This document shows, piece after piece, positions 9,018-56,944 of a stretch of 64,000 bases of DNA. The stretch spans positions 32,001-96,000 of the IMG/VR virus record IMGVR_UViG_3300046786_000748; one strand, written 5' to 3'. The notes beneath the pieces were generated by a model. That model did not search any database. It was given only the letters and a program-made list of their open reading frames with translations, and had not been told where the DNA came from. This DNA is from a virus. Numbering within the stretch: the stretch's first letter is position 1; each line of letters opens with the position of its first letter. The translations under genes and the position numbers were made by a program.

Positions 9018-11570
9018 ATGGCAGTCGTCTATTATCCAAAACAATCTATAGTTCTTAAAAGAGACACGGTTAGTGCATCTTTTGAACAAGTTGTTTTAAA
9101 TACCACACCAAATACAATTCTCTATTTTGGTTCCGGTTCTCTCTCTGAAATATCCGGCTCTACAATTTACATTACTTCTAGTCACGCCCTAACTGCATCT
9201 TATCTCATGGGGTTTATAGAATCCGCTTCATTTGCTTCATTCGCTTTAAGTGCCTCATGGGCTCCTTCAGTTCAAAGCGAAGGTTCTGTTTCGTCATCGT
9301 GGGCTAGTTCAAGTTTATCAGCAAGTTATGCTACACTTGCTTTGAACTCCATCAATGGAAGCGTATCCGCTTCTTATGCTTTAACTGCATCATACTCGTC
9401 GAATGCCTCTTCGGAATCTTCTAGTTACGCACTTACAGCAAGTTATGCTTTAAATGGCGGTTCTGGTGGAACAACACTAACAACGGGTTCTTTTTATCCA
9501 ATAACTTCAAGTTGGTCGGTTTCAGCAAGTTGGGCTCCTAGTTCTCAAACAGTTGCATCTGTATCATCATCTTGGGCTAGTAGTTCACTGAGTTCTAGCT
9601 ATGCTATTTTAGCTTTAAACGTAATTAATGGTAACGTTTCTGCATCTTATGCGTTATCAGCATCCTATGCACCAAGTTCTCCATCTGTTTCTGCTTCATA
9701 TGCTTTAAGTTCTTCATATGCACCATTCACACAAGTTTATCAATCCAACACAACATCGGCAAGTTGGGCTAGCAGTTCTTTAACAGCAAGTTATTTACCT
9801 CCTGGAAATTATGCAATAACTTCTTCATGGACGACAAATTTACCACCCCATACTGCTTCATGGGCAGGGAATGCAATAGTTTCAAATACAAGTTTATATG
9901 CTTCTCAATCTCAGTGGTCAATTTCTTCAAGCTATTCTTCTGGTTCTACTACAGCAGTAACAGCTACAAACCTCGGATTAACAGCTTATAATATTTCTGT
10001 AACCTTTGCTTCTCAAAGTCAATTAGCTATCACTTCATCGTGGGCAAGCAGTTCACTATCTTCATCATTTGCTATAAGTGCAAGTTATTCTGCATATCTC
10101 TATTACAATGTAACGCAATCTTTAACTCTTATAAGTTCAGCTTCGTGGGCTTCAGCAAGCTTAAGTTCAAGTTACTTAACTCCAGGAACATATCAAATAA
10201 CTTCGTCCTGGGTTACAAACCTTCCTGCTCATACAGCTTCTTGGGCTGGTAATGCGAACGTTGCTAATACAAGTTTATATGCTTCTCAATCCAACTGGGC
10301 TATATCTTCCAGTTATGCTTCAGGATCTACAACGTCAGTAACTGCAACTAATCTAGGGTTAACTGCTTATAACATAAGCGTAACTTATGCTTCGCAATCA
10401 AGATGGGCTATATCAGCAAGTTGGGCTTCAAGTTCACTTACATCAAGCCACTTGCCTCCTGGAACTTATCAAATAACTTCTTCTTGGGCTGGAAATTCAA
10501 TAGTATCAAATACTTCTTTGTTTGCTTCACAATCACAATGGTCAGTTTCATCTTCGTATGCTACGAGTTCAACCAGATCCGACGTAAGTTTAGTTCAAAA
10601 TACAGGATCTAATGATACGTCATATTTGACGTTTGTTTTAAATACAGGAAGTTATCAGAACAACTACGTCACAACATCAATAACTGTTAATGCTGGATTG
10701 GGCAGATTAACTGCCACAAGTTTTACAGGAAGTCATTTCGGAAATACAATAGGAACGTCAAGTTGGTCAGTTTCAGCTTCATGGGCTCCATCAAACGGTG
10801 TTGTAAGTTCAGCTTCGTGGTCTTCAGCAAGCTTAAGTTCAAGTTACTTAACTCCAGGAATTTATTCAATAACTTCATCGTGGGTAGTTAATTTGCCTGC
10901 TCATACAGCTTCATGGGCAGGAAACGCAATAGTTTCAAATACAAGTTTATACTCTTCACAATCTCAGTGGAGTATATCTGCTTCATATGCTTCAAGTTCA
11001 ACAATTGCTAATACAGCTACAACAGCTACTAATCTTGGATTAACATCTTATAATATTTCTGTCATTCACGCTTCGCAATCTCATTGGGCTACTTCAGCAA
11101 GTTATGCATCAAGTTCAACATCCGCTTCTTATGCTACACTTGCTCTCAATGTATTGAACGGAGGAGTTTCTTCATCATACGCATTATCTGCAAGTTATGC
11201 TCTTAATGGTGGTGGTGGACCAAGCATTTCTTCATCATACGCATCTACTTCTAGTTGGGCAAGTAATTTAGTAATAACATCTTCCGCACAAACTACCGGA
11301 AGTTACATCTTAGTTAGCGATGATAATGGTAAAGTAATTACATTCCAAAATGCTACAACTAATAGCATTGTTATTCCAGCTTCATTACCAACGAATTTTA
11401 ACTGTTTTTTGGTATCAGTATCTACCAGCAGTGTACAAGTTACTGGATCTGGTGGTATTCAACTTAATAATGCTAATAACTGTTTCAAGTTAAGTGGAAG
11501 ATATTCAGCCGCTTCCATTGTTGGATACTTGCCAGAAAAATACATTCTATTTGGTGATGTTTCTTTATGA
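9018..11570 (+). CDS. Ser-rich repeat tail fibre with C-terminal adaptor domain
   Basis: 850 aa; SASYA/SSSWA repeats and ~100-130-aa internal repeats; C-terminal YILVSDDNGKVI...YILFGD domain; ATGA overlap with next gene. Confidence 0.65.
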   Translation: MAVVYYPKQSIVLKRDTVSASFEQVVLNTTPNTILYFGSGSLSEISGSTIYITSSHALTASYLMGFIESASFASFALSASWAPSVQSEGSVSSSWASSSLSASYATLALNSINGSVSASYALTASYSSNASSESSSYALTASYALNGGSGGTTLTTGSFYPITSSWSVSASWAPSSQTVASVSSSWASSSLSSSYAILALNVINGNVSASYALSASYAPSSPSVSASYALSSSYAPFTQVYQSNTTSASWASSSLTASYLPPGNYAITSSWTTNLPPHTASWAGNAIVSNTSLYASQSQWSISSSYSSGSTTAVTATNLGLTAYNISVTFASQSQLAITSSWASSSLSSSFAISASYSAYLYYNVTQSLTLISSASWASASLSSSYLTPGTYQITSSWVTNLPAHTASWAGNANVANTSLYASQSNWAISSSYASGSTTSVTATNLGLTAYNISVTYASQSRWAISASWASSSLTSSHLPPGTYQITSSWAGNSIVSNTSLFASQSQWSVSSSYATSSTRSDVSLVQNTGSNDTSYLTFVLNTGSYQNNYVTTSITVNAGLGRLTATSFTGSHFGNTIGTSSWSVSASWAPSNGVVSSASWSSASLSSSYLTPGIYSITSSWVVNLPAHTASWAGNAIVSNTSLYSSQSQWSISASYASSSTIANTATTATNLGLTSYNISVIHASQSHWATSASYASSSTSASYATLALNVLNGGVSSSYALSASYALNGGGGPSISSSYASTSSWASNLVITSSAQTTGSYILVSDDNGKVITFQNATTNSIVIPASLPTNFNCFLVSVSTSSVQVTGSGGIQLNNANNCFKLSGRYSAASIVGYLPEKYILFGDVSL
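10132..10860 (+). repeat. Near-identical 57-nt direct repeat pair (10132-10188 and 10804-10860) in the fibre gene
   Basis: taagttcagcttcgtgg[g/t]cttcagcaagcttaagttcaagttacttaactccaggaa, 1 mismatch. Confidence 0.85.
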
Positions 11571-12802: not shown

Positions 12803-13285
12803 ATGAATGTATTTGTATTTGACAACTATTTGGAATATGTTTCACCAGCAGACGGTGTAACGGTATTGCGACATATGTTATTGGAACTGCCTAGTTTTAA
12901 AGATCATACAATTTTATATGATTTCACTTATAGTGATTTGGCACCGGAACAAAAAGCAATCCTACATGAAAGCGGTGATCCAGTTGCTGTAAGATTGCTA
13001 AATAACTTGCCAGCAAGAAGTAAAGAAGAACTAAGGAAATTAATGATAGTCACTCCTGCTCAGTTAAGGTTGGCATTACTTCAATCAGGCATTTTACCAT
13101 CCCAAATCACCGATGTAATCAGTCAATTGCCTGATGCTGCGCAACGTGAGACTGTCGGTATTCTTTGGGAATATGCCACACAGTTTGAAAGAAATCATCC
13201 GTTTGTTGCTCAAATTGGAATTATGTTTGGTAAGACGGAAGAAGAAATTGACCAGATTTTCACAGTCGCTAAGACACTGAACTAA
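12803..13285 (+). CDS. Tail-fibre-associated/assembly chaperone-like protein
   Basis: C-terminal VTPAQLRLALL...WEYATQFERNHP...TEEEIDQIF domain, commonly found downstream of fibre genes. Confidence 0.55.
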   Translation: MNVFVFDNYLEYVSPADGVTVLRHMLLELPSFKDHTILYDFTYSDLAPEQKAILHESGDPVAVRLLNNLPARSKEELRKLMIVTPAQLRLALLQSGILPSQITDVISQLPDAAQRETVGILWEYATQFERNHPFVAQIGIMFGKTEEEIDQIFTVAKTLN

Positions 13286-13306
13286 CTATTTATATCTATA
13301 CACTTT

Positions 13307-14185
13307 TTAAACTCTTGGTGTAAAATTAACAGGGTCATAAATAGCTGTCATTTCTTTAATAAACGGTTTCATTACTTCATCTTTTAATGCTTCCTGAAAA
13401 CAGTCTTCCCAAGATTTTACTTTTGGATTTCCAATCTCGTTTAATTCAGGATTGTTATGAATTTCCCTAGCTTTTGAAGCCCATTTGGAAGCAGCCTGTG
13501 TTCTCCACTTGTCTTTATCACCACTCTTTTTGTTTCTAAAAGTCAATTCAAAAGATAATTGTTTACCATTCTCAAATATAGCAGAAATTGATTGACTTCC
13601 TTCATGTACAAACCACCCATCTCCCTGTCTAAAACTTTCATTAATTGGTGCTGTTTCCTGAGTTTCCCTAGACATCCCCTTCCAATCAGAATGGTCTACA
13701 CCCCAGTTTTTAACATAAGGTTTCATTCTTTCACTACTTAATGCTTCGACAAAACATTCTTTCCAAGATTTTCTTTTGAAATAAGGATCATTTGGATCTG
13801 TTGGACGAATTCTTGAGTTGTGTAGTCTATGAATCTTTTGAGTTTCAATCATCCACCTTCTAACCGCCTTTTTACCCCACTCTTGTATCTTTCTAAACTC
13901 CGGTCTGTAAGGACCAATAGAATTACCAACCAATTCTCCAAGTTCTTGTGGATATTGAACTTCAAACCAAATTCTTGCTTGTTCTCGGTGATATCCCTCA
14001 GGACCTATGTAAACACAAGCACCTGTAGTTCCACTTTCCCAATCATTTGCTCCTTGATAAGCAGACCAACCATTCCCCTGTTCAAACATATCAAAATTTT
14101 CAGGAACACGAAATGGTTTGGCGTCTTTAGACGACACAAACCCAGGAACATAGAGTTCTTCTAAAAGGTGTTTTAAGTGAATCAT
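13307..14185 (-). CDS. Hypothetical two-repeat protein with head-targeting-like leader and capsid-identical C-terminal peptide
   Basis: 292 aa; starts MIHLKHLLEE; two copies of F-x-QG-x-GW...KSW-x-x-CF-x-EAL...MKP; ends YDPVNFTPRV. Confidence 0.75.
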   Translation of the reverse strand: MIHLKHLLEELYVPGFVSSKDAKPFRVPENFDMFEQGNGWSAYQGANDWESGTTGACVYIGPEGYHREQARIWFEVQYPQELGELVGNSIGPYRPEFRKIQEWGKKAVRRWMIETQKIHRLHNSRIRPTDPNDPYFKRKSWKECFVEALSSERMKPYVKNWGVDHSDWKGMSRETQETAPINESFRQGDGWFVHEGSQSISAIFENGKQLSFELTFRNKKSGDKDKWRTQAASKWASKAREIHNNPELNEIGNPKVKSWEDCFQEALKDEVMKPFIKEMTAIYDPVNFTPRV

Positions 14186-14186
14186 A

Positions 14187-14990
14187 TCAAATTATAAATA
14201 TCGGATTCTTATTACAAAACTCGTCTAATGCTTTGAATAATTCAACATTATTAGCCCACTCCTTAAGTGGTTTCTGTTCATCTTCCGGATTTTCATCCGA
14301 AACAACAGGTTCTTCTTCTGGCTCTTGTGGAGTTTGCATCGGATCATCAACAGGTTTTGTAGCTACTGTAGGTTCTAGTTCTGGCTCAGGAGTTTGAGTT
14401 GGATCAATCGGTTTTTCCAATTCTGGCTCAGGTTCTTCTGGTGGTAATTTTTCCTTGGGAGGAGTTGTTGGAACAGCCACAGGAGTTTGATTGGGTGGTT
14501 GTGTTGGGTCGGGAGAAGGAACAGGTTCGCCTTCAATATTAGTTCTTAAATACTCTTTTAAAGCAATAAGATGTTTACAAAGACCAGGACCACGGTTAAT
14601 AGAAGATGGATAGTTCAATCCTTTGTTCAAACTACCAGGACCGTTTTCACCTGCGTCTTGTTGTTTATTAGCATAACTAAATCTAAACCTATAATCAGGA
14701 CAACTGCAATCAACTGAACAAGGAACTTTCATTGCGTTATCGCCAGGATTCATTTCTTCTTTGTAAAAATAAATAAACCCTTGGTGTCTCAATCCCGTAG
14801 TATTTTCGTCTCTAGGAGTTTTATAAGAAAATTTCCAAGCCTCTCTGTCGTTTATAGATTTAGCTACAAGAGATTTTGCTGGGATTCTATTCGCTCTGTC
14901 TTTTCTAGCAGAATCAGAAGCACGCATGAGATCTTCATAAGACATTTTCTCAACAAGCATTTCTGAAATTAATGAACGAAGTTTAATCAT
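14187..14990 (-). CDS. SWIM zinc-finger protein with Pro/Glu-rich tail
   Basis: VDCSCPDY...GLCKHLIAL (CxC-xn-CxH); leader MIKLRSLISE. Confidence 0.7.
   Translation of the reverse strand: MIKLRSLISEMLVEKMSYEDLMRASDSARKDRANRIPAKSLVAKSINDREAWKFSYKTPRDENTTGLRHQGFIYFYKEEMNPGDNAMKVPCSVDCSCPDYRFRFSYANKQQDAGENGPGSLNKGLNYPSSINRGPGLCKHLIALKEYLRTNIEGEPVPSPDPTQPPNQTPVAVPTTPPKEKLPPEEPEPELEKPIDPTQTPEPELEPTVATKPVDDPMQTPQEPEEEPVVSDENPEDEQKPLKEWANNVELFKALDEFCNKNPIFII
14193..14200 (-). promoter_or_regulatory. TATTTATA putative late promoter motif
   Basis: 7 nt before ATG 14185, embedded in the 3' end of the upstream gene. Confidence 0.5.
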
Positions 14991-14991
14991 A

Positions 14992-15549
14992 TTAGTTGAA
15001 TCCCAATCTCATAACCATCGTTGTTAAAATTGGACATTGAAATTTGTTTTTATCATAATACATCCATTCAATAGTACCTTCACTATCAAACTTAGAACCA
15101 TCTCCTGTTTTTTTAGAAGGTTCTTTATCACCAACATCAACTGCGTATAAATAATAAATAGTATCTGTTGATTTAGTACCTCTACAAGTTCCCAATGATT
15201 TCAAATCTTTCTCTTTTACTTCATATCCACTTTCTTCTTTAATTTCTTTTACAGCAGTTTCTTCAGGAGACATGCCTTTTTCACAACCACCTGTCAAAGC
15301 AGATAAGTTCTTTTCTTTCCCCCAAGCAGGAGTAACTTCTTTTCTAACCCCATATTCCCACGCATCCCTACCTTTTCTTCTATACAATAAAACCCCTACT
15401 ATTTTACCCTGACAACGTTCTTCGTGGAGATAAAAATAACCATCTTCGTCTTTAACAAGTTTAATTTTTTTAATGGAAATCCACTCGTTTTCATAAACGG
15501 TTTCTTCTTTTTTATTTCCTTCACAGAGAAGATGTTTTAACTTAATCAT
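14992..15549 (-). CDS. NUDIX hydrolase
   Basis: Variant Nudix box GGCEKGMSPEETAVKEIKEESGY; leader MIKLKHLLCE. Confidence 0.85.
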   Translation of the reverse strand: MIKLKHLLCEGNKKEETVYENEWISIKKIKLVKDEDGYFYLHEERCQGKIVGVLLYRRKGRDAWEYGVRKEVTPAWGKEKNLSALTGGCEKGMSPEETAVKEIKEESGYEVKEKDLKSLGTCRGTKSTDTIYYLYAVDVGDKEPSKKTGDGSKFDSEGTIEWMYYDKNKFQCPILTTMVMRLGFN

Positions 15550-15557
15550 AAATCAAA

Positions 15558-15565
15558 TATAAATA
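15558..15565 (-). promoter_or_regulatory. TATTTATA putative late promoter motif
   Basis: 8 nt before ATG 15549. Confidence 0.55.
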
Positions 15566-16333
15566 TTACGATATTAACTCGTTCTTAAGTTTTCTTTTAT
15601 GATACTTTACAGCACTTATACTGATTTTATATTTTGTTGAAAGTTGAATAATTGTATGTTGGTCGGATAAAATATCTTTAATTAAGTCCGATTTAATTTT
15701 CTTTAAAATTTGTTTATTGAGTTTTATTTTCTGTTTGTTTTCTTCTGACATTGGACCCAAAACCATTCCGGACCTTCGGTTTGGATTACTGTAGTTCATT
15801 GTTCTATTTTTTAACATAATTCGCCGATCATTAAACTTTTGTTGACCCACTTCTTTTCCATATTTGTTTGTAAACCACTCCATAGAGAACCTACCCTTCG
15901 CTTTTTCTTTTTGTAGTTGTTTGGATTCCTCTGTGTGGTTTCTGCCATACATAGGATTGTTTTCACCTAATGAAATAGTCCTCATTTTTTCAATAAACAC
16001 ATCTCTATTTGGATTATATGTTATATTATCACCACCGTTGGCTGTCGGACATATGTTATATCCGATATCTCTCATGTAAGGTTTAAACAAATCCAGATAA
16101 TGTTGTTCTCTATCCAAGAGAATAATTTTTTCCGAAAGAGTTTCTTCAACAATTTCAAACAGGAATTTATCGTTGCCATAAAAATCCCAGGCGTGTTGAA
16201 GTTTTGGGTTTATATGATATCCACCATTTAGATATTGTTTGTGTTCTTCCCACCTATAATCTATATCTTTAGCAGAACCGATATAAAATTTTCCGTTAAC
16301 AGTATTAGTTATTTTGTAAATTCCACTTTTCAT
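15566..16333 (-). CDS. Free-standing GIY-YIG homing endonuclease (NUMOD3 and C-terminal HTH)
   Basis: SGIYKITNTVNGKFYIGS...REQHYLD...GYNI; GENNPMYGRNHTEESK; lies directly downstream of the capsid gene. Confidence 0.9.
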   Translation of the reverse strand: MKSGIYKITNTVNGKFYIGSAKDIDYRWEEHKQYLNGGYHINPKLQHAWDFYGNDKFLFEIVEETLSEKIILLDREQHYLDLFKPYMRDIGYNICPTANGGDNITYNPNRDVFIEKMRTISLGENNPMYGRNHTEESKQLQKEKAKGRFSMEWFTNKYGKEVGQQKFNDRRIMLKNRTMNYSNPNRRSGMVLGPMSEENKQKIKLNKQILKKIKSDLIKDILSDQHTIIQLSTKYKISISAVKYHKRKLKNELIS

Positions 16334-16338
16334 ATGTC

Positions 16339-16381
16339 TATAAATATCATGAATTTTACGGAATAATCAAACATTTGTCAA
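16339..16381 (-). promoter_or_regulatory. Tandem sigma70-type promoter (TTGACA-17-TAAAAT) and TATTTATA motif
   Basis: TTGACA 16381-16376, TAAAAT 16358-16353, TATTTATA 16346-16339. Confidence 0.6.
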
Positions 16382-16487: not shown

Positions 16488-18215
16488 TTATACTTGATTT
16501 AAATCGCCTACCAAAATGCGCCCGTAAAATTCTGGGCGGACTATCTTCTTCGCATATCTTGTCATTACACCACGTCTTGGCGTGAAGTTCACTGGATCGT
16601 AGACTAGAGGAGTCTGAACGAGTGGGATATATGGAGCATAGACAGCACCAGTTTCGAGGAAGTTATTTCCACGGAAACCAACAAGAATTACGTTGTCGGT
16701 CATATATGGGTTCTTGTAAACCTGGAATCTTGAAGCAAAGCTTCCGACTCTGGTTACGCCCATTGCGAACTTGGCTTGGTCACCATCGGTATTTACTGCC
16801 CATCCTGGGATGGATTCAAGGATGGTTGCGACATCTGGCGAGCAAACGAGGAAGTTAGCACCACCACGGAGGGTCAACTGGTGAATCTTGTTACTAACCT
16901 TCTGAATCTTGATACCCAACGTGCGGTACCATGTATCCTTGGTGTAATATCCACCTGTTCCTGCAACGGATTGATCAACGACTGCGTATGTTCCATCACC
17001 GTTGGAGAGGATTTCACGATTGAGCTTAGCAGACCATCTTTCGGTGGTGATTGCTGGAGCATTCGTGATTAACATGTCGAGGATTTCAAGGTCGATTTCC
17101 ATTGAAACGTACTCAGACAACAGAGCAGTAAGTTCTGCTTCTGCGTCAATGCTGTGATAAGCATTCAAGTCTTGAGCAAGTTCTGGAGTCCAGACTGCTT
17201 TCAACTTACGAGTCTTGGCGACGATAGGTTCGCTCTTAAGTTCCAAATTAACTTCTGGGATACCGATATCGTTATTTAATCCAAATGTAGCATCTGGAGA
17301 ACCACGATCTTCGAAGTCACCACGGTTGGCATCTTTAGGCTGTACTGAGTAAATAACAGTCCAAGTTCCACCAGCGGCATTTGCACCACCACCACCCATA
17401 CCTGGAGCACCACCCAATGTTGCGGAAGCAGTTACGAGGAAGACAACTTCGGTTCCGAATTGTTTGGTTAATGCTGGGTAATACGATGCGGATGTATTAG
17501 TTGGAGTAAACAACGATGCGGATTGTGCTGGTCCATAAAGAACAAAGCTACGAACTCCATTTGCGTCGAATACGTTACCAGCTGCTGTGGTCTGTGAATA
17601 GAGGTTAGTTGTAGCAACCTTCCAAATCTTACCAGCGGCCAGTGAAGATGACAAACTTACATCCCAGTTGATATCTTCCATCGAAGCAGAAGAAACTAAG
17701 ACTGTAGCGGTTGTGTTTTTATCATTTACAGTATATCCGAAACGGCCGGAACCATAAAGACCACCGGTTGCTGAATCAGTCGAACCGAGTTTCGTACCCG
17801 TTCCACCGTAAAGAGATTGCGAGGTTGTTCCACCACCCTGACCGTCCTTGTAGAACTGACCTTGGTTTGTTCCATACTTGAAATCAAGATAGAATACGAG
17901 ACCAGAAGGAAGATTCATTGGCTGAACCGAGACGAATTCCTTAGCAGCGATTTCTGCGAATACACGACGAACGAGTGGAAGAGCGACGCCTGCCCATTGT
18001 TCGGAGTTTGAAGATACACCAGTCTGACTGGCTTCTTCGATAAGCTGCTTGGCTTGGTTTTCAAGCAATACAGCCATGTTGGATTTTTCCATGTCATTCT
18101 TCAAACCTTCAAGCAAGCCTGTCTTATCCCACTTGGAGACGAGACCACGGGTTTCTTGCATCAAACGAGCCTGAGGATTCATGGTGTTTGTCAATAGTGA
18201 CTTTACATCATTCAT
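16488..18215 (-). CDS. gp23: Major capsid protein (T4 gp23-like)
   Basis: LPLVRRVF...VQPMNLPSGLVF, AKTRKLKAVWTPELAQDLNAYH, YAPYIPL...FTPRRGVMTRY; AAGGA RBS. Confidence 0.97.
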   Translation of the reverse strand: MNDVKSLLTNTMNPQARLMQETRGLVSKWDKTGLLEGLKNDMEKSNMAVLLENQAKQLIEEASQTGVSSNSEQWAGVALPLVRRVFAEIAAKEFVSVQPMNLPSGLVFYLDFKYGTNQGQFYKDGQGGGTTSQSLYGGTGTKLGSTDSATGGLYGSGRFGYTVNDKNTTATVLVSSASMEDINWDVSLSSSLAAGKIWKVATTNLYSQTTAAGNVFDANGVRSFVLYGPAQSASLFTPTNTSASYYPALTKQFGTEVVFLVTASATLGGAPGMGGGGANAAGGTWTVIYSVQPKDANRGDFEDRGSPDATFGLNNDIGIPEVNLELKSEPIVAKTRKLKAVWTPELAQDLNAYHSIDAEAELTALLSEYVSMEIDLEILDMLITNAPAITTERWSAKLNREILSNGDGTYAVVDQSVAGTGGYYTKDTWYRTLGIKIQKVSNKIHQLTLRGGANFLVCSPDVATILESIPGWAVNTDGDQAKFAMGVTRVGSFASRFQVYKNPYMTDNVILVGFRGNNFLETGAVYAPYIPLVQTPLVYDPVNFTPRRGVMTRYAKKIVRPEFYGRILVGDLNQV

Positions 18216-19644: not shown

Positions 19645-19696
19645 TATAAATATAGAAGAAAAAATCAAAATTATAAAAAACTTCAAGATATTTATT
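19645..19696. promoter_or_regulatory. Back-to-back TATTTAT motifs driving divergent late units
   Basis: TATTTATA on minus strand at 19652-19645 (toward scaffold/capsid); ATATTTATT on plus strand at 19688-19696 (toward ATG 19722). Confidence 0.55.
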
Positions 19697-25924: not shown

Positions 25925-26542
25925 TTAAACGATTTCACTGAAAATGTCTTGAATGATACTTTCTGCTGTAACCCATTTTCCGTTAATTGGGTTTTGTACA
26001 ACTTGTTTTACACCTTCTGTTAAAGCACCAGATGGAAACATAAATGCTCCTCTTGTTGAAGGATTGGAAACAAAATCAAAAGCAATCAATTCAAAATCGT
26101 CTTGAACCTGATCAACACCTTCGGAAATTTTCTTAATAGTTCCAAGACCACGACTGGAAATTCCAAGACGAATGTTGGAACGGAAAAGTTCTTTCAAGAT
26201 GTTACCGCTTGGAGTTCCAAGAACTTCAACGGTTCCCATAAGATCTTTACCTTCCCAATGCATTTCAATTATGTTATGGGAAACGTTTTTGAGGTTAACT
26301 ACTTGAGATTCTGGATGATCAAGTTCACCAAGAGCACGTCTTTCTTTTATAAAACCCTCTGTATATTTTTGGGCCTCACGCATTAGAGTTTCATATGGAT
26401 AACTACGTCCATTTTGGTTTGTGGCTTCTGCACGCTGGAGAATGCCCTTTACAACGAATGGACCTTTACCGGATAAGGCTTCGGTAAGAGTTTGTCTCAA
26501 AGGTTCAAACGTTATTACGTCAATTAAGAGTTTCTTTTCCAT
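25925..26542 (-). CDS. gp21: Prohead core protease (T4 gp21-like)
   Basis: NQNGRSYP, ALGELDHP, VSHNI, TPSGNI, GISSRGLG, DFVSNPS. Confidence 0.95.
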   Translation of the reverse strand: MEKKLLIDVITFEPLRQTLTEALSGKGPFVVKGILQRAEATNQNGRSYPYETLMREAQKYTEGFIKERRALGELDHPESQVVNLKNVSHNIIEMHWEGKDLMGTVEVLGTPSGNILKELFRSNIRLGISSRGLGTIKKISEGVDQVQDDFELIAFDFVSNPSTRGAFMFPSGALTEGVKQVVQNPINGKWVTAESIIQDIFSEIV

Positions 26543-28678: not shown

Positions 28679-31600
28679 TTATTCTAATATGTTGGCTTCG
28701 TCCAAAATTGATTTATCTTTGGATTCTGTCATTAATTCTTTCTTGACATCTTTACCGGATGACATGAAATTATCTAAACTATTAAAAACACTCTTCATTT
28801 CCAACGCCAGTGGACTTTCCTTACTTACTTTTGGAGTGAGAGTTCGATCTGTCTTGGATGAATCACGGGTTCTTTCCAAATCTCCTAAAGGATCTTCGCC
28901 GAACGGATAGTCAGACGCTTTCTTTTCGCCTGCTTGTGAAGGCCTTACATAATCATGAGCCGACTCTCCTTGTTTTTCAGAAACTACTACAGATTCTTTA
29001 ACTGGACCCTCTTCTCCAGGACCACCTTCCGGTCCACCGCCAGGTTCACCCTCCGGACCACCTTCTTCGTCTCCTAAATCAGGTCCTGATCCGCCTCCGC
29101 CACCTGGACCGGACAATCCACCACCATCACCATCACCATCACCACCATCTGATTGTGGATTAATCTTCTTGAATGGTTTAGCTGGGTCGTTACCATCTTC
29201 GGTAATCTGTTTCAATCTCCAAAGTTGCTTACAATCTTCCACAACATCTTGTTCATTTTTTTGAATGTCATCATCCGACATACGAAAAATCTTCTTGAAA
29301 ACAAACTTTCTTGAAAAGAATGGGCCGGAACTATCACTCATCTCCGACATTGTTTTAGCATTTTCCATCTTAGCAGCCCAAATTTCCATCTTTTCTTTCT
29401 CAAACACAGTGGATGGATTAGTTAAACCAATAGTAAAATCTACGATAGAAGCGTCTCTATAACCTTGAGCATATAAATGAACTTGAGCAATCTTATTAAG
29501 TTCAGAAATAACCATCTTTTGAATACGAGAAATTGTTCTAGCAAATCTGACATCTTCTGCTGCTAAAGTAGCTTTTCCAGAGGTATTTTCATCAAAACCA
29601 ATGAAAGGTTTTGGAACCTTGAAAGCTGCCATCATTTTGTTTTTCACATACTCCAAGTCATCAATTCCAGTAAATTCCATGCCAGGAAGAGTATCAATTG
29701 ACGTTCCTGAATCGGCTCCACGGGTAGGAAGGAAAATATCTTCCACCATGTTCATGAGGTTAAACCGAAGATTGTAGTCACCAGTTCTCTCGTCAATATA
29801 AGGAACTTTCTTCATCTTAGAGATGATTTGTTCCATAAAATTATCAACTTCGTTTGGTGGAATGTTGCCGATATCAATCTTGAAAATTCTCTTTTCAGGG
29901 GCTCTCATAATACGATGAATTAACATTGCATCTTCAAGTAATGAAAGCTGCTTCCAAACACGACGGCCGGGCTCAATCATTGACCGACCATAAGGTAGAA
30001 AGTTTGAATCCGCAAGCAATCGAAAGTGAGCTACTTGAAAAGATTCAAGAATTTCCGCTTGTGATGTATCGACGGGTCTAATTTGAAATTTAACGTAGTT
30101 TTTGTTAAGAGGGTCTGAATTTTCAATACGTTCTACGTTATAAGCAGAAATAGGTTCTACAAGGTAAACTCCGTATTCAGGACTTATGTTAAGTTTGAGA
30201 TAGAAATCTCCATACTTACACATGTTTCTAATCCAAGACCAAAGGTTGAATTCGACATTTAAAATATCGTAGAATAGGTTATGAAGAATATCTTTGATGT
30301 TGTTATTTTTGGAATCAATAGTCAACATTTCACCCATTTCATTCTCAGTAAGACATTCATCAGCATAAATGTCCAATACAGAAGATATGATCGGATCCAT
30401 ATCCATTGTATTGTGGACGAAACAACTATCAGTTGCAAAGTTTTGATATTTTTCTACAGTAACATCATAAACTTCTATTTCTCCAACATATTCGATGGAC
30501 ACTATTTTATGATTTAATGTAGAAACAATTTCTTGTTTAAAAGTATCCCAATCATACTCACCGTCTATCAGCCTGTTACGAACTGTAGAATAATCGCATC
30601 CAACATATTTACTTAATCCAAATATATCTAATTTTCCGTAAGTTTTGTAATATTCAAACGCATAATCACTTATAATATCAAAACTAATATCGTTTCTTGC
30701 ATTTGGATTTCTAAATCTAGATTGATTTCTCTTTTTTAACGATGTTTTTAACGATTCTGAACGAAGTTGATTTGATTTTTTAGAATGTGATTTTCCATAA
30801 AACGGATTGTTTTTTCCAGCACGTTTGCCATTCCACTTATTAAACTTTCTGTTTTTATAACCATCAGATGATTGAACTTTTTCAATAGTTTTTTGTTTAT
30901 TTGCAGGAGACCATATAACATCATTATTTAAATGCATATGAAATGCTCTATGGTCCGAATCCGTCATAATTTGAAGATTTGACGGTAGATTGTTAGTTTT
31001 ATCAAAGTTTCTATGATGAACTACTTCATTATCATTCAATGGTCGTTCAAACTGTTCTGCAACAATAACATGTTCAGATTGCCATCCTTTTGAAAAGTTA
31101 TAAATAGATCTATATCCATTATTATAGAAATCTTTTTGATAGAACGGCATTACAGATTCACCGACAGATAAATTCTCAAGTTTTTTATATTCTCCATTTC
31201 GCATTAAAAACGGATGTCCGGCACTGCCTATAACATATTGTCCATTATCAAAAATAACTTTCCACGATTTTCTAGCACCACCTTCTTTTTTACGAGGATG
31301 ATAGGCCTTTCCAAGTTTTATAGAATCGGTTTCGTGGTCATATGAAAATACTAAAAATCGTTCTTGTGGATTGTCTTTATATTTCTCCGCAAGTTCTGCT
31401 ATTGTTGGAGTAGTCCCATCAGGCAGTGGTATTATTGTATCTGGTCCTACGCAATCGTAGTCACGGAAAAGGTCTAATCTGGCTGCTTGATAAGATAAAG
31501 CGAAATCACGGGTATATGCGTTTACGTTTGATGAACGAACTCGGTTCCATCTATCTCTAAACGAATTTCGGTCAGTCGCATACTGAATTTCATCGCTATC

Positions 31601-31741
31601 TTTTATCTTGAGTTTCTTCCCACCAACGTTTCTTACTATTACATCAGTTGAAAACAATCTCTTTAAACGAGCATATAGTGATTGTTGTTTTACATCAATC
31701 ACGTCGTCTACAGATATCCTTGTTAAATTGTTAGTGGCCAT
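28679..31741 (-). CDS. gp20: Portal protein (T4 gp20-like) with intein
   Basis: LLEDAMLIHRIMRAPEKRIFKIDIGNIPP, EDIFLPTRG..GTSIDTLPG; intein after DYD; TATTTATA at 31768-31761 upstream. Confidence 0.95.
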   Translation of the reverse strand: MATNNLTRISVDDVIDVKQQSLYARLKRLFSTDVIVRNVGGKKLKIKDSDEIQYATDRNSFRDRWNRVRSSNVNAYTRDFALSYQAARLDLFRDYDCVGPDTIIPLPDGTTPTIAELAEKYKDNPQERFLVFSYDHETDSIKLGKAYHPRKKEGGARKSWKVIFDNGQYVIGSAGHPFLMRNGEYKKLENLSVGESVMPFYQKDFYNNGYRSIYNFSKGWQSEHVIVAEQFERPLNDNEVVHHRNFDKTNNLPSNLQIMTDSDHRAFHMHLNNDVIWSPANKQKTIEKVQSSDGYKNRKFNKWNGKRAGKNNPFYGKSHSKKSNQLRSESLKTSLKKRNQSRFRNPNARNDISFDIISDYAFEYYKTYGKLDIFGLSKYVGCDYSTVRNRLIDGEYDWDTFKQEIVSTLNHKIVSIEYVGEIEVYDVTVEKYQNFATDSCFVHNTMDMDPIISSVLDIYADECLTENEMGEMLTIDSKNNNIKDILHNLFYDILNVEFNLWSWIRNMCKYGDFYLKLNISPEYGVYLVEPISAYNVERIENSDPLNKNYVKFQIRPVDTSQAEILESFQVAHFRLLADSNFLPYGRSMIEPGRRVWKQLSLLEDAMLIHRIMRAPEKRIFKIDIGNIPPNEVDNFMEQIISKMKKVPYIDERTGDYNLRFNLMNMVEDIFLPTRGADSGTSIDTLPGMEFTGIDDLEYVKNKMMAAFKVPKPFIGFDENTSGKATLAAEDVRFARTISRIQKMVISELNKIAQVHLYAQGYRDASIVDFTIGLTNPSTVFEKEKMEIWAAKMENAKTMSEMSDSSGPFFSRKFVFKKIFRMSDDDIQKNEQDVVEDCKQLWRLKQITEDGNDPAKPFKKINPQSDGGDGDGDGGGLSGPGGGGGSGPDLGDEEGGPEGEPGGGPEGGPGEEGPVKESVVVSEKQGESAHDYVRPSQAGEKKASDYPFGEDPLGDLERTRDSSKTDRTLTPKVSKESPLALEMKSVFNSLDNFMSSGKDVKKELMTESKDKSILDEANILE
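30410..31453 (-). mobile_element. 348-aa intein with HNH endonuclease and NUMOD3-like motif in portal
   Basis: Begins CVGPDT (Cys97); block B SAGHPF; VVHHRNFDKTNNLPSNL (HNH); GKNNPFYGKSHS; ends VYDVTVEKYQNF...VHN followed by Thr. Confidence 0.93.
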
Positions 31742-31783: not shown

Positions 31784-33400
31784 TTATAATAACCATTTAA
31801 GACTTTCTACTTGTCCTTGTCTCCCAAGTTTCATATTCCAAGCCTCCTGACCAGTATTTGCGGTTCTGTTGGTGAAAACCGGAGCAGAACCGGTGTATTG
31901 AACTCTTTCTATTTTATCCATCATAATTCGGTTATAAGCCATAGATTCGTGTTTCAACCTTAATGCGGTATCTCTAACCCATAAACCTATGCCTAATGCC
32001 ATAACCAAATCGTCGTTGTATCCTTCCATAGCAACCGCTTTACCTTTATCCCAAATAAAAGTCTCAAGTTCCCCCAATGTTCTGGTAGAAAACACGTTTA
32101 CCGATTTATCTCTAAAATACTGTTCTAATCTTGAAATTATAAGAGGACGAGTTCTCAAAGTAGTGGAAAATCCAGGAACCATTTTCTTTTCTTCGGAATA
32201 ATACTTCGTAACTAATTGTTTCTGAACTTCAACGTACTTCAAATCTACAGTACTATAAAATGTATTTGGATATCCGCTATCAACTATAGTTTGAATAGTA
32301 CCAAATCCTACTCCAGTATTTTCAACGATTAACAAAGCCTTGTTATACATTGTGGCTATATTAACTAATTGATGACCAAAAGACACCAAATCTATCTGCC
32401 CTTTGTATTCCACACATTGGTTAAGCGTCTCTGCATCCAAAACATGATAAGCAGAATAGTCTCCGCCGTCGCCTCTAGCTACGTCAGCACAAACTATATA
32501 AGTTCTTGAATAATCAGGATATTCATAAATCCATTCTGATCTATCTATGCCACGACATTCAACTGGGTCTCGTTTTAAACTTTCTTTATAGTATTCTATT
32601 ATAGCCAAATCAACTACTGTAGCACCTGATGTAAGAAAATCACAATCGCATTCCTGAGCAGCTTCTTTCGGAGACTTAGCAACTTCTGTTTGTGCATCTC
32701 TCCAGACTTGATCACGTTCTGGATGAAGATGCCAAGGAAGTTTAATGGTGTTGAATTTGTTCTTTTTAGCTTCCGAATCTTTCCACATTCTATGAAAAAA
32801 ATTACCAACACCGTTTGGTGTTGATAGAATAATGGAACGTCCACCAGTTGACAACGTAGGATAAGCAGCCGTCCAAATTTCATCAATACCGTCAATAAAT
32901 GCCGCTTCGTCAATAATCAAAAGAGACAAAGCAAATGAACGACCTGCGTCCGATGCTGAAGATGTTGCTAAAATCCGTGAACCGTTTTTAAGTTTAAGAG
33001 ATAATTTATTGTTATCTAAAGCTTGAATTTTCAACCAAGATGGTAAATTATCATTGGCAAATCTAACTTTTGCAACAATTTCTTTTGAAACTTCTTGTGT
33101 TCTTGAAATAACTAGAATATTCTTATCAGAATGAAACAACATCAACCATAAAGCGTAAGCAGCTACGAGAGTTGAAATACCCATCTGACGAGATTTTAGA
33201 ACAATATTAAAATCAAATTCATAAAACTCTCTTAAAGATTTCTCTTGAAAATCAAAAAGAAGAAAAGGAATTGTTCCCCGAATAGGGTGCTGAATCTTAA
33301 CATATTTCTTCATGAAATACACCGGGTCCGAAGCACACTTGGCGTATTCCGATTTGATTATGTCTTTAAGAGTTTGTTGGTTGTTTTGATTTGAGCTCAT
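31784..33400 (-). CDS. gp17: Terminase large subunit (T4 gp17-like)
   Basis: C-x-x-DPVYF, KSRQMGIST, LLIIDEAAFI, STPNG, ADVARG, YNDDLVMAL. Confidence 0.95.
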   Translation of the reverse strand: MSSNQNNQQTLKDIIKSEYAKCASDPVYFMKKYVKIQHPIRGTIPFLLFDFQEKSLREFYEFDFNIVLKSRQMGISTLVAAYALWLMLFHSDKNILVISRTQEVSKEIVAKVRFANDNLPSWLKIQALDNNKLSLKLKNGSRILATSSASDAGRSFALSLLIIDEAAFIDGIDEIWTAAYPTLSTGGRSIILSTPNGVGNFFHRMWKDSEAKKNKFNTIKLPWHLHPERDQVWRDAQTEVAKSPKEAAQECDCDFLTSGATVVDLAIIEYYKESLKRDPVECRGIDRSEWIYEYPDYSRTYIVCADVARGDGGDYSAYHVLDAETLNQCVEYKGQIDLVSFGHQLVNIATMYNKALLIVENTGVGFGTIQTIVDSGYPNTFYSTVDLKYVEVQKQLVTKYYSEEKKMVPGFSTTLRTRPLIISRLEQYFRDKSVNVFSTRTLGELETFIWDKGKAVAMEGYNDDLVMALGIGLWVRDTALRLKHESMAYNRIMMDKIERVQYTGSAPVFTNRTANTGQEAWNMKLGRQGQVESLKWLL

Positions 33401-54964: not shown

Positions 54965-56944
54965 TTACAATACTGTTCCTTTGATATCTACGTCTGGATA
55001 TTTTACTTCAAACACCGATGGGTCTAATGATGAATAAACGATTTTATTTTTAGTAGCCGAATCAATATCATACTCAACTACCGAATAATTTCCGTGATTA
55101 ACATTCTTATTTGTAATCTTAACATTAGCAACTGACTGAACTCCATCAACTTTAGCTATTTCTAACTCTAACTGACTTAAATTTATAGATTGTGAAAAAT
55201 TCCAGAAATCTACATCGAAAAAATTCTTTACTGATGAAATACAACTTTTAAGAACATCTTTTTTGTTATATCCTTTATAGACAAGAATGCTAAACTCTAC
55301 ACCAATGTTAACGACATACCCATCAATAATATTAATACCATCTGTCATCATTCTGAATTTTTTTAGATATTTAATCAAATTTGCTGCAAGAGCATCATTG
55401 ATGGAAGTTAAGTTCTTATTAGAATCATAAGACAAAACATACAAATTTATAGAAAACGGATTGTTTACATCACATGATATTTTTCTAAAATAATTGTTTA
55501 AACTATTATCATAAACGGTAGCAACGTTTTCTGTATCTATTGTTCCTGTCAACATTCTCTTGACATTAATGTTTAAACTATTATTGGTAATTACTTGAGC
55601 TTTGGCAATGGAACCATACCTAGAAGGCATAGAGTAAACTCTGACTAAATAATCGTCTTTAGTAACCGACCTGTTTTGAGTTGGGAAATTCGAAAGAGCA
55701 TTTTGTTTTATTTCAATGTCGGTTTCTGAATCTCTTCCTCCTGTAGCAGGAGTGGTATTGTTTACTTTAAAGGAATTCTTGACAGTGTTTAACAAACTAA
55801 CTTCATCAGGAGTCAATCCGTCATCAGAATTTTCAAACTCTACAGAAAGAACCGTTCTGATATCATTCGACGGACAATTAGATGTAATTCCACCGCCGAT
55901 GACATACTTTACAGTAATTACCGTGTTAGACGGAGCAATTCCATATGATTCATTTTTCATAAAATTGCTTGGGTCAAGCGGAACCCTAGTAATATCAATT
56001 CCCGACAAACCTATACCGACAGATTGGGAACTCATATTTACTATTTCATCAGTAAAACCTTCTGACCCTGCTCCAAACTGTATTGTCGTTTTGTTTTTAT
56101 CATCAACATCAACAATAAATCTTCTTGGTGTTCTGAGATATTTCAAGATATACGGAACAGTATCTTTGTATTGAGATAACATTCCTTCAAACGAAACATC
56201 ATTAGGAACTTCTGTTAAAATCAATTCTTGAGCAAGATAATCGACTTCATACCATTTATTATTGTCGGAATCTCTTACATCCAAAATTTCCAACACATTA
56301 TCTTCATCTAATTGAAGTTTGAGAAAGGATTGAAGTGTTCCCAATGTAAATTCCTTGGTTACAATTTTTCCACTAGAAATTTTTGATGTTTTCTTTACTA
56401 AGAAAAAATTTGGCAAATTAGAATCGTCTCTAGAATAAACCGTTACTTCTCTGGGAGAAAGTAAAGTATCTACAGAAAAATCCACCGAATCCTCCAAAAT
56501 GTAAAATTGATTTGATGAATTTGAAAATTGAGCGTGTTCTCTAATAGAAAGCAAATAATCTGGATCAGGAACATAATTTCCTGTAGAATCCATTATTGCT
56601 GGACAAAGTTGATACAATTCCACTTCCGCAGTAGCAGATTTAGATGGTTTTACCTTATACCCAAGAAACTTCGCTAGAGAAAGAATATTTTTTCTTTCTG
56701 TGGAATTTTGTATCATTCCTTCTTTGAAAGCTTGGTCAGTATAGAATGAAAGAACGTCGCCAACATAGGCTGCCATTTCTATAAACATCATGCCAGGAGA
56801 AGCATCAGAGAAATCTTTGTAGGAATTAGGAAAATATGTCTTAGCAAAGTTTATCAAATCTGTTTTAAGACTGGAAAAATCTTTGTTAACATATTTCACA
56901 TCCTTGCTTCCGGGTTGAAATGATTTTTGTGATGTGGTTGCCAT
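54965..56944 (-). CDS. gp6: Baseplate wedge subunit (T4 gp6-like)
   Basis: KDFSSLK...DFSDASPGMMFIE..AYVGDVLSFY, IQFG, GGRDSET, QNRSVTKDDY. Confidence 0.9.
   Translation of the reverse strand: MATTSQKSFQPGSKDVKYVNKDFSSLKTDLINFAKTYFPNSYKDFSDASPGMMFIEMAAYVGDVLSFYTDQAFKEGMIQNSTERKNILSLAKFLGYKVKPSKSATAEVELYQLCPAIMDSTGNYVPDPDYLLSIREHAQFSNSSNQFYILEDSVDFSVDTLLSPREVTVYSRDDSNLPNFFLVKKTSKISSGKIVTKEFTLGTLQSFLKLQLDEDNVLEILDVRDSDNNKWYEVDYLAQELILTEVPNDVSFEGMLSQYKDTVPYILKYLRTPRRFIVDVDDKNKTTIQFGAGSEGFTDEIVNMSSQSVGIGLSGIDITRVPLDPSNFMKNESYGIAPSNTVITVKYVIGGGITSNCPSNDIRTVLSVEFENSDDGLTPDEVSLLNTVKNSFKVNNTTPATGGRDSETDIEIKQNALSNFPTQNRSVTKDDYLVRVYSMPSRYGSIAKAQVITNNSLNINVKRMLTGTIDTENVATVYDNSLNNYFRKISCDVNNPFSINLYVLSYDSNKNLTSINDALAANLIKYLKKFRMMTDGINIIDGYVVNIGVEFSILVYKGYNKKDVLKSCISSVKNFFDVDFWNFSQSINLSQLELEIAKVDGVQSVANVKITNKNVNHGNYSVVEYDIDSATKNKIVYSSLDPSVFEVKYPDVDIKGTVL

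Follow-up and report, generated by a model that had tools for sequence, protein, structure and literature searches.

Introduction

C-terminal elements of the HK97 maturation protease and of the P22 scaffolding protein contact the coat protein for incorporation into the procapsid. The internal proteins of phage T4 carry a capsid targeting sequence (CTS) in a form that ends in L/I-x-E and is removed by the gp21 protease (PMC9958956), and in phage P1 the injected anti-restriction proteins DarA-Hdf lie on the inner capsid face at capsomer junctions and also affect head morphogenesis (PMC12810830). Here we describe a protein of 292 amino acids (aa), encoded in a 64,000-nt stretch of viral DNA (hereafter the window), whose C-terminal tail repeats nine consecutive residues of the major capsid protein (MCP) of the same phage. 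The window comprises positions 32,001 to 96,000 of IMGVR_UViG_3300046786_000748, a viral record of 105 kb in IMG/VR.

At the T4 head's quasi-threefold axes, three P-loops touch each other hydrophobically and anchor the lattice. These contacts join the capsomers before and after expansion and serve as anchor points (PMC9546572; PMC9958956). According to T4 structures, the known partners of the P-loop are neighbouring capsomers. The source of the window is, judged by sequence, a distant T4-like phage; genes for an MCP of the gp23 family, an S77 prohead protease, a gp20-type portal with an intein and a large terminase were all found. The MCP matches the T4 gp23 structures 5VF3, 6UZC and 7VS5 (phmmer), and its nearest cultured counterparts are those of Flavobacterium phage immuto (54% identity), Microcystis phage Mel-JY01 (52%) and Rhodothermus phage RM378 (39%).

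Results

A capsid peptide at the end of a second protein

The two proteins that share the peptide are encoded as follows:

13307-14185, minus strand: gene for the 292-aa protein, with leader, module 1, protease-type site, module 2 and P-loop-like tail (open reading frame (ORF) with homologs)
16488-18215, minus strand: MCP, gp23 type, 575 aa (PF07068, E 4e-77)
16575-16601, minus strand: motif YDPVNFTPR within the MCP (phmmer alignment to T4 gp23 S462-DPKNFQP-469)

The 292-aa ORF ends in ...EMTAIYDPVNFTPRV followed directly by the stop codon, and the MCP carries ...TPLVYDPVNFTPRRGVMTRY. In the 292-aa protein, whose tail peptide reads TAIYDPVNFTPRV, YDPVNFTPR occupies residues 283-291 (nt 13313-13339) and is followed by a single residue (V) and the stop. 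In the MCP, it occupies residues 539-547 and lies 28 aa from the end of the protein. As stated in a preliminary description of this DNA, all nine residues are identical between tail and MCP while seven of the nine codons differ, each time synonymously. The motif is the sole 9-mer shared among the 47 non-repeat ORFs of the window, and shuffled proteins gave an expectation of 0.03 shared 8-mers per window or fewer; the match is therefore not due to chance.

The similarity between the two proteins is short. BLASTP returned one aligned stretch with 12 of 23 residues identical, and a profile-profile comparison (hhalign) aligned 13 columns with a probability of 92% (E 6e-7). The Gp23 domain (PF07068) was not found in the 292-aa protein by a Pfam search, and homology to the MCP across the HK97 fold was not seen. 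When the family consensus KPFIKETDRTPVFDPVNFTPR was set by eye against the MCP segment APYIPLVQTPLVYDPVNFTPR, 11 of 21 ungapped positions agreed. Since the profile comparison backs 13 columns only, we do not claim a longer shared origin. A third match to DP.NF in the window, LDPSNFMKN (55961-55975, inside a 659-aa ORF), was set aside as being at chance level for a four-residue pattern.

The preliminary description had also taken the AGA TAT found past the stop codon as a hint of a capsid-gene remnant. This does not hold, as these letters belong to an AT-rich, promoter-like octamer, TATTTATA/TATAAATA, at 13287-13294, and they are missing after the stop both in a homolog of about 90% identity (L001) and in L008.

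The tail is kept across a divergent family

Homologs were collected with a word-indexed search (n = 19) and an exhaustive profile search with a module-only alignment (A4), which gave 98 clusters at 50% identity. Scans of viral and metagenome contigs gave about 50 further loci, and 113 family proteins were in hand in total. DP[VIT]NF[TS] is present in 44 of them. In 38 of these 44 carriers, exactly three residues, usually P-R-x, separate the T from the stop. The span between the last conserved helix (W..CF.EAL) and the motif varies from 25 to 57 residues. The preliminary description had proposed to look for the tail in homologs; as 44 of 113 do keep it, 38 of these at the same distance from the C-terminus, the tail is not a one-off relic of recombination.

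Module proteins that are only 26-40% identical retain P-[IV]-x-D-P-[VI]-N-F-T-P-R, and among their tails all synonymous codons for D, P, V/I, T, P and R are in use. In alignment A2, P285, N287 and F288 are at least 90% conserved. The early suggestion of selection at the protein level is thus confirmed: the codons vary, and the residues D-P-[VI]-N-F-T-P-R are fixed. The variation that we saw is small (V/I/M, P to A, PR to KS); variant tails read DPTNFTQR (P0028), DAVNFT (L064/L065), DPMNFT (L093) and DPVNFS (P0072/P0076). The exchange of V for I, which is tolerated in the tail, also occurs in natural P-loops of MCPs (DPVNF/DPINF in cyanophage-like MCPs). Outside MCPs, DP[VI]NFTPR followed by a residue with T at the second codon position was found in IMG/VR only behind this module; in this pattern the following residue is thus never R, unlike in the MCP of the clade.

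Such conservation marks the tail as a short linear motif under strong purifying selection on a flexible tether, and docking peptides typically have a fixed motif on a variable tether. Going by these comparisons, the tail is genuine and under selection, and it is widespread in a single family; for its function, we make a proposal below.

On the capsid side, the 21-aa MCP stretch QTPLVYDPVNFTPRRGVMTRY is identical in 17 of 17 non-redundant contigs with an MCP, and 11 of these contigs also encode a family protein with the motif. The carrier module was not found in cultured relatives with other MCP loops, namely Mel-JY01 (DPQNF), LR756508 (DPNNF) and RM378 (DPVNFSY).

The copied segment aligns to the P-loop region of T4 gp23

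The MCP motif aligns to T4 gp23 S462-DPKNFQP-469 (phmmer), directly after T457, R460 and G461. In T4, the head-length mutations T457A, R460C and G461S lie near the quasi-threefold axes (PMC9546572). Based on the alignment and the literature, the tail would copy the P-loop or its immediate flank, a lattice-contact element at quasi-threefold junctions between capsomers. The copied segment is among the most invariant blocks of the MCP: D540, P541, N543, F544, T545, P546, R547, G549, M551, T552, R553 and Y554 do not vary between two clades whose overall identity is only 32-34%. The cyanophage-like clade reads IDP[VI]NFTPRVG, with the same alternation of V and I as the tails. An AlphaFold2 (AF2) model of the MCP built from 14 sequences reached a mean predicted local distance difference test (pLDDT) score of 40, too low to place the loop.

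The 292-aa protein consists of a leader, two modules and the tail

The protein can be divided into the following parts:

14156-14185, minus strand: leader MIHLKHLLEE, residues 1-10, of the capsid-targeting type, ending in L-x-E (cleavage motif of the T4 gp21 type), a start common to unrelated proteins
13688-14098, minus strand: module 1, residues ~30-166, with beta-meander, long helix and short helices (AF2), a paralogue of module 2
13640-13651, minus strand: P-I-N-E, residues 179-182, predicted cut site of the prohead protease, in the disordered linker that joins the modules
13349-13639, minus strand: module 2, residues 183-279, with GxGW strands, AASKW helix, NNPELNE.GNP and W..CF.EAL helix (alignments A1, A2 and A4)
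13310-13348, minus strand: disordered C-terminal tail, residues 280-292, with YDPVNFTPR and one final residue (pLDDT <50)

The AF2 model of the protein (mean pLDDT 70) shows two similar modules, each made up of a meander of four strands, one long helix and two short ones. The model predicts disorder for residues 1-29, 167-184 and 280-292, with pLDDT <50 for the latter two stretches. The modules are paralogous halves (BLASTP, E 6e-9), and module 2 corresponds to the conserved carrier module of about 100-110 aa. Module 1 ends in ...NWGVDHSDWKGM (13688-13720, residues ~156-166), which lacks the capsid motif, and the counterpart in module 2 is ...AIYDPVNFTPRV. The two have a D-x-x-(D/N)-(W/F) pattern in common that is kept in homologs, and the end of module 1 may be a degenerate sister of the capsid-like tail. 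Between the modules, [VIL]-x-E followed by S/T-F is conserved in the alignment of homologs. The minimal member of the family, L008, has 121 aa and consists of leader, one module and tail; its leader (...IQE) is joined straight to SFRKGDGW.

The leader connects this protein to others of the phage. MIKLKxLLxE starts were found on three other proteins of the window, MIKLRSLISE on a 267-aa protein, MIKLKHLLCE on a NUDIX hydrolase and MIKLKQLLKE on a 122-aa protein, and the same leader heads many unrelated proteins in related contigs. The head-targeting type of leader noticed in the preliminary description is indeed present on the 292-aa protein, and a T4-type prohead protease gene lies nearby; its product is presumed to be the enzyme behind the L/I-x-E cuts. 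From these motifs, we infer that the 292-aa protein is a head-packaged polyprotein of two modules that is cleaved between them. The carrier-module proteins belong to one clade of distant T4-like phages and are probably packaged in the head as internal proteins.

The 292-aa protein had no family match in Pfam, PHROG or NCBIfam, and its AF2 model matched no PDB fold (Foldseek, E <= 0.001). The carrier module gave no usable match in the ESM Atlas, and tblastn with the 292-aa protein found no match in 50,697 phage records.

Extended members place a putative cargo domain behind the motif

In many contigs, the motif is internal. It is then followed at once by [LI]-x-E, as in PRLGE, PRIGE, PRLQE, PRLEE and PRKQLAE, and by a domain of about 135 aa (L009:10424-10813, L010, L013, L015, L029 and many of L067-L092). 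The protease-type triplets behind the motif in these extended members are LGE, IGE, LQE, LEE and LAE, and cutting there would leave the motif near the new C-terminus. The ~135-aa domain contains two H-x-T motifs (AHHMTI and PHITL) and matches tRNA_lig_CPD weakly in Pfam (E 0.0047); it had no match in PDB or NCBIfam. We tentatively regard this cargo as 2H-phosphoesterase-like. It may be a head-packaged enzyme of the 2H-phosphoesterase type, possibly directed against cyclic-nucleotide or 2'-5' signalling.

Clear 2_5_RNA_ligase2 domains are present in larger proteins with the module. The carrier module also occurs inside polyproteins of 700-2,230 aa (P0102, P0095, P0109, P0107, P0092, P0040, P0070 and P0031), where its partners are NUDIX with thymidylate kinase, 2'-5' RNA ligase/LigT (2H), InPase, RNA polymerase Rpb1 domain 2, and inteins. 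These giant proteins may be virion-delivered multi-enzyme proteins of uncultured phages, and the nature of the partners fits a putative carrier for virion-delivered enzymes.

Gene neighbourhood

Besides the genes listed above, the following features surround the locus or belong to the head gene set:

14187-14990, minus strand: leader-bearing neighbour protein, 267 aa, MIKLRSLISE start, without capsid-like tail (PHROG 18980, unknown function)
14992-15549, minus strand: leader-bearing NUDIX hydrolase, 185 aa, MIKLKHLLCE start, without capsid-like tail (PF00293, E 1.9e-8)
15566-16333, minus strand: GIY-YIG/NUMOD3 homing endonuclease gene, an insertion with the MCP gene on one side and the row of leader-bearing genes on the other
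25925-26542, minus strand: T4-type prohead core serine protease, S77 (PF03420, E 5e-26)
28679-31741, minus strand: portal gene (gp20-type) with an intein that contains an HNH endonuclease and a NUMOD3 motif, residues ~104-444
13287-13294, 14193-14200, 15558-15565, 16339-16346, 19645-19652 and others: copies of the octamer TATTTATA

Many genes on both strands have the octamer TATTTATA, in sense orientation, a few bases upstream. The octamer is the reverse complement of T4's TATAAATA and looks like the late promoter of this phage. A late-type copy lies 8 nt upstream of the start codon of the 292-aa gene, and another falls between two convergent genes, one ending at 13285 and the other at 13307, in a gap of 21 nt. 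The NUDIX hydrolase gene has its own TATTTATA motif, and its product is a candidate injected enzyme.

The 267-aa protein has a Cys/His pattern, CSVDCSCPDY...LCKHL, which may resemble a SWIM-type zinc finger, followed by a long acidic stretch rich in Pro and Glu. A similar MVDCDCPDYRYRF stands at the start of P0066. Two paralogous Ser-rich repeat proteins, probably fibres, are encoded on the plus strand (162-1208 and 9018-11570) with units such as SASYALSASY and VSSSWASSSL. This pair supplies nearly all long peptide words common to ORFs of the window.

Discussion

We propose that the tail is a self-mimicking docking peptide that would use the contacts of the P-loop itself to hold carrier and cargo on the capsid protein during prohead assembly, a reading to which we give a little less than an even chance. 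Because the tail is identical to an invariant capsid loop, tail and loop most likely share a binding partner. From the identity of the peptide, its conservation, its position and its gene context, we infer packaging, cleavage and binding, which can be pictured as three steps. The N-terminal MIKLKxLLxE leader would bring the protein into the scaffolding core of the prohead. The tail would then dock the module and any fused cargo on the capsid protein via P-loop contacts at capsomer junctions; speculatively, free capsomers, the edge of the growing shell or the five portal-side junctions that lack a third P-loop could serve as docking sites. Finally, the S77 prohead protease would cut after L/I-x-E, removing the leader and separating the modules, and in extended members this cut would free the enzyme-like cargo just behind the motif. 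The head context is supportive, as the common leader, the S77 protease, the portal, the MCP and the late-type TATTTATA motifs all lie in the window. That self-mimicry acts more generally as a capsid-loading signal, with a copy of the P-loop plugging cargo into capsomer junctions and the protease then releasing the enzymes, seems doubtful to us.

Several observations weigh against docking. A completed quasi-threefold junction has P-loops in all three of its positions, and a fourth copy would need a vacancy or a transient state. Since a finished junction offers no free position, docking would have to take place on free capsomers, the shell edge or the portal-side junctions named above. The tail is missing from other leader-bearing proteins of the phage, so packaging may require no more than the leader. 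The tail was lost by truncation in L058, L061 and L063, where the MCP is unchanged, and about 60% of the module proteins have no tail, which means that it is not needed for the module as such. Packaging and cleavage of the 292-aa protein are read from motifs only, and the mapping to the P-loop relies on the sequence alignment with T4 and on the published description of neighbouring residues.

Other explanations of the shared peptide have to be considered alongside docking. The tail might bind a head-assembly factor other than the MCP (the scaffold, the S77 protease, the portal or a chaperone) for which the P-loop of the MCP is a recognition site as well, in which case internal proteins would borrow the recognition peptide of the capsid for recruitment or processing. 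We think this unlikely, but it would explain the identity with an invariant loop and the head-gene context equally well, and in extended forms protease-type sites come immediately after the motif. A precedent is the HK97 protease, which is encapsidated by means of its C-terminal tail. On the other hand, we know of no reader of the P-loop in T4, and most family members have the motif at the very C-terminus, without a cleavage site after it. Moreover, T4 P-loops are described as touching each other (PMC9546572; PMC9958956). The tail might also be a decoy or antagonist: carried by an injected protein, it would occupy a host immune sensor of the invariant P-loop and blunt capsid-triggered abortive infection later on. 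An invariant loop would make a good immune target, leader-bearing neighbours look like counter-defence enzymes (NUDIX here, 2H-phosphoesterase-like cargo in relatives), and IPI of T4 is an injected anti-restriction protein (PMC9958956). Nevertheless, a decoy is quite unlikely in our view, since a faithful copy of the trigger is expected to activate a sensor and not to block it, and the fixed C-terminal position and the protease site that follows point to head maturation. We also know of no sensor of the P-loop segment. The parallel to the Lit/Gol case, drawn in the preliminary description, is not supported, as the tail motif aligns to T4 gp23 462-469, away from Gol, which lies N-terminally in gp23 at residues 93-122. 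Probable packaging, a predicted disordered tail on a variable linker and the nature of the copied loop as a lattice contact are the context that favours an anchor or docking role over a decoy; the first interpretation of the shared peptide, which had named both, is therefore supported in part.

The peptide could instead modulate assembly. By capping the contact surface of the P-loop, it would compete with the joining of capsomers and so tune nucleation, head size and shape, or the timing of closure. T4 point mutations right beside the aligned segment (T457A, R460C and G461S) do alter head length (PMC9546572), and core proteins are made in hundreds of copies (PMC9958956). However, the loss of the tail in lineages with the same MCP and the absence of the module from the cultured relatives examined indicate that it is not a core assembly factor, and fusion to enzyme-like cargo suggests delivery, not regulation; we consider a modulator improbable. 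Hardly any weight is left for a neutral relic, in which a 3' fragment of the MCP gene was copied by recombination, for example driven by the GIY-YIG endonuclease, or for coincidence. It is true that the gene directly downstream of the MCP gene encodes a GIY-YIG homing endonuclease, and that the tail resembles the MCP over no more than the 13 columns. Yet dozens of clusters with only 26-40% identity retain the motif, synonymous change is saturated and the end position is fixed, by which a neutral relic is effectively refuted; a coincidence is opposed by the shuffling result of at most about 0.03 shared 8-mers per window.

Docking on the capsid, the reading that we favour, would make the tail a simple and portable tag of 8-11 residues with which proteins could be placed in T4-like heads. 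The positioning of internal cargo against the shell would become visible as well, and the tail would serve as a natural probe of the quasi-threefold contact, on which head geometry depends. A decoy would instead suggest that hosts have an as yet unknown sensor for the capsid loop that varies least. In both cases, the 98 clusters constitute a sizeable unannotated family of carrier modules in uncultured phages, with predicted head packaging and with fusions to NUDIX, 2H-phosphoesterase-like, pyrophosphatase and RNA-polymerase-like domains.

Comparison with known systems

The closest parallels are IPI, IPII, IPIII and Alt of T4, which resemble the 292-aa protein in the short N-terminal leader (the CTS) ending in L/I-x-E, in the location of their genes in the head block, in the S77 (gp21-type) protease and in their diverse, partly enzymatic payloads that are delivered with the DNA. 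There is no sequence relationship between them and the 292-aa protein (no Pfam or PHROG match), and to our knowledge no T4 internal protein has a further signal at its C-terminus that is copied from the capsid protein. The cargo-loading peptides of encapsulins are alike in another respect, as they are short, conserved peptides at the extreme C-terminus on a variable, disordered linker that bring varied cargo to the interior of a shell with the HK97 fold. An extreme C-terminal motif on a variable, flexible linker was also found here (38 of 44 carriers; 25-57 residues). The sequence of encapsulin targeting peptides is different, however, and in our case the peptide copies the inter-capsomer loop of the shell itself, with shell binding being predicted only. 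The HK97 protease and the P22 scaffolding protein share with the 292-aa protein a C-terminal encapsidation element on an internal protein, but we know of no segment of their coat proteins that these elements resemble. In the Gol/Lit and CapRel(SJ46) systems, the trigger is the capsid protein itself and not a copy on another protein. DarA and Hdf of P1 differ in that helical bundles bind the junctions between pentons and hexons, without a peptide that mimics the capsid (PMC12810830). Our literature search found no described case of a tag that copies the contact loop of the shell protein itself. Such self-mimicry would give phage heads a second internal addressing system, one not described before, encapsulin-like but derived from the shell.

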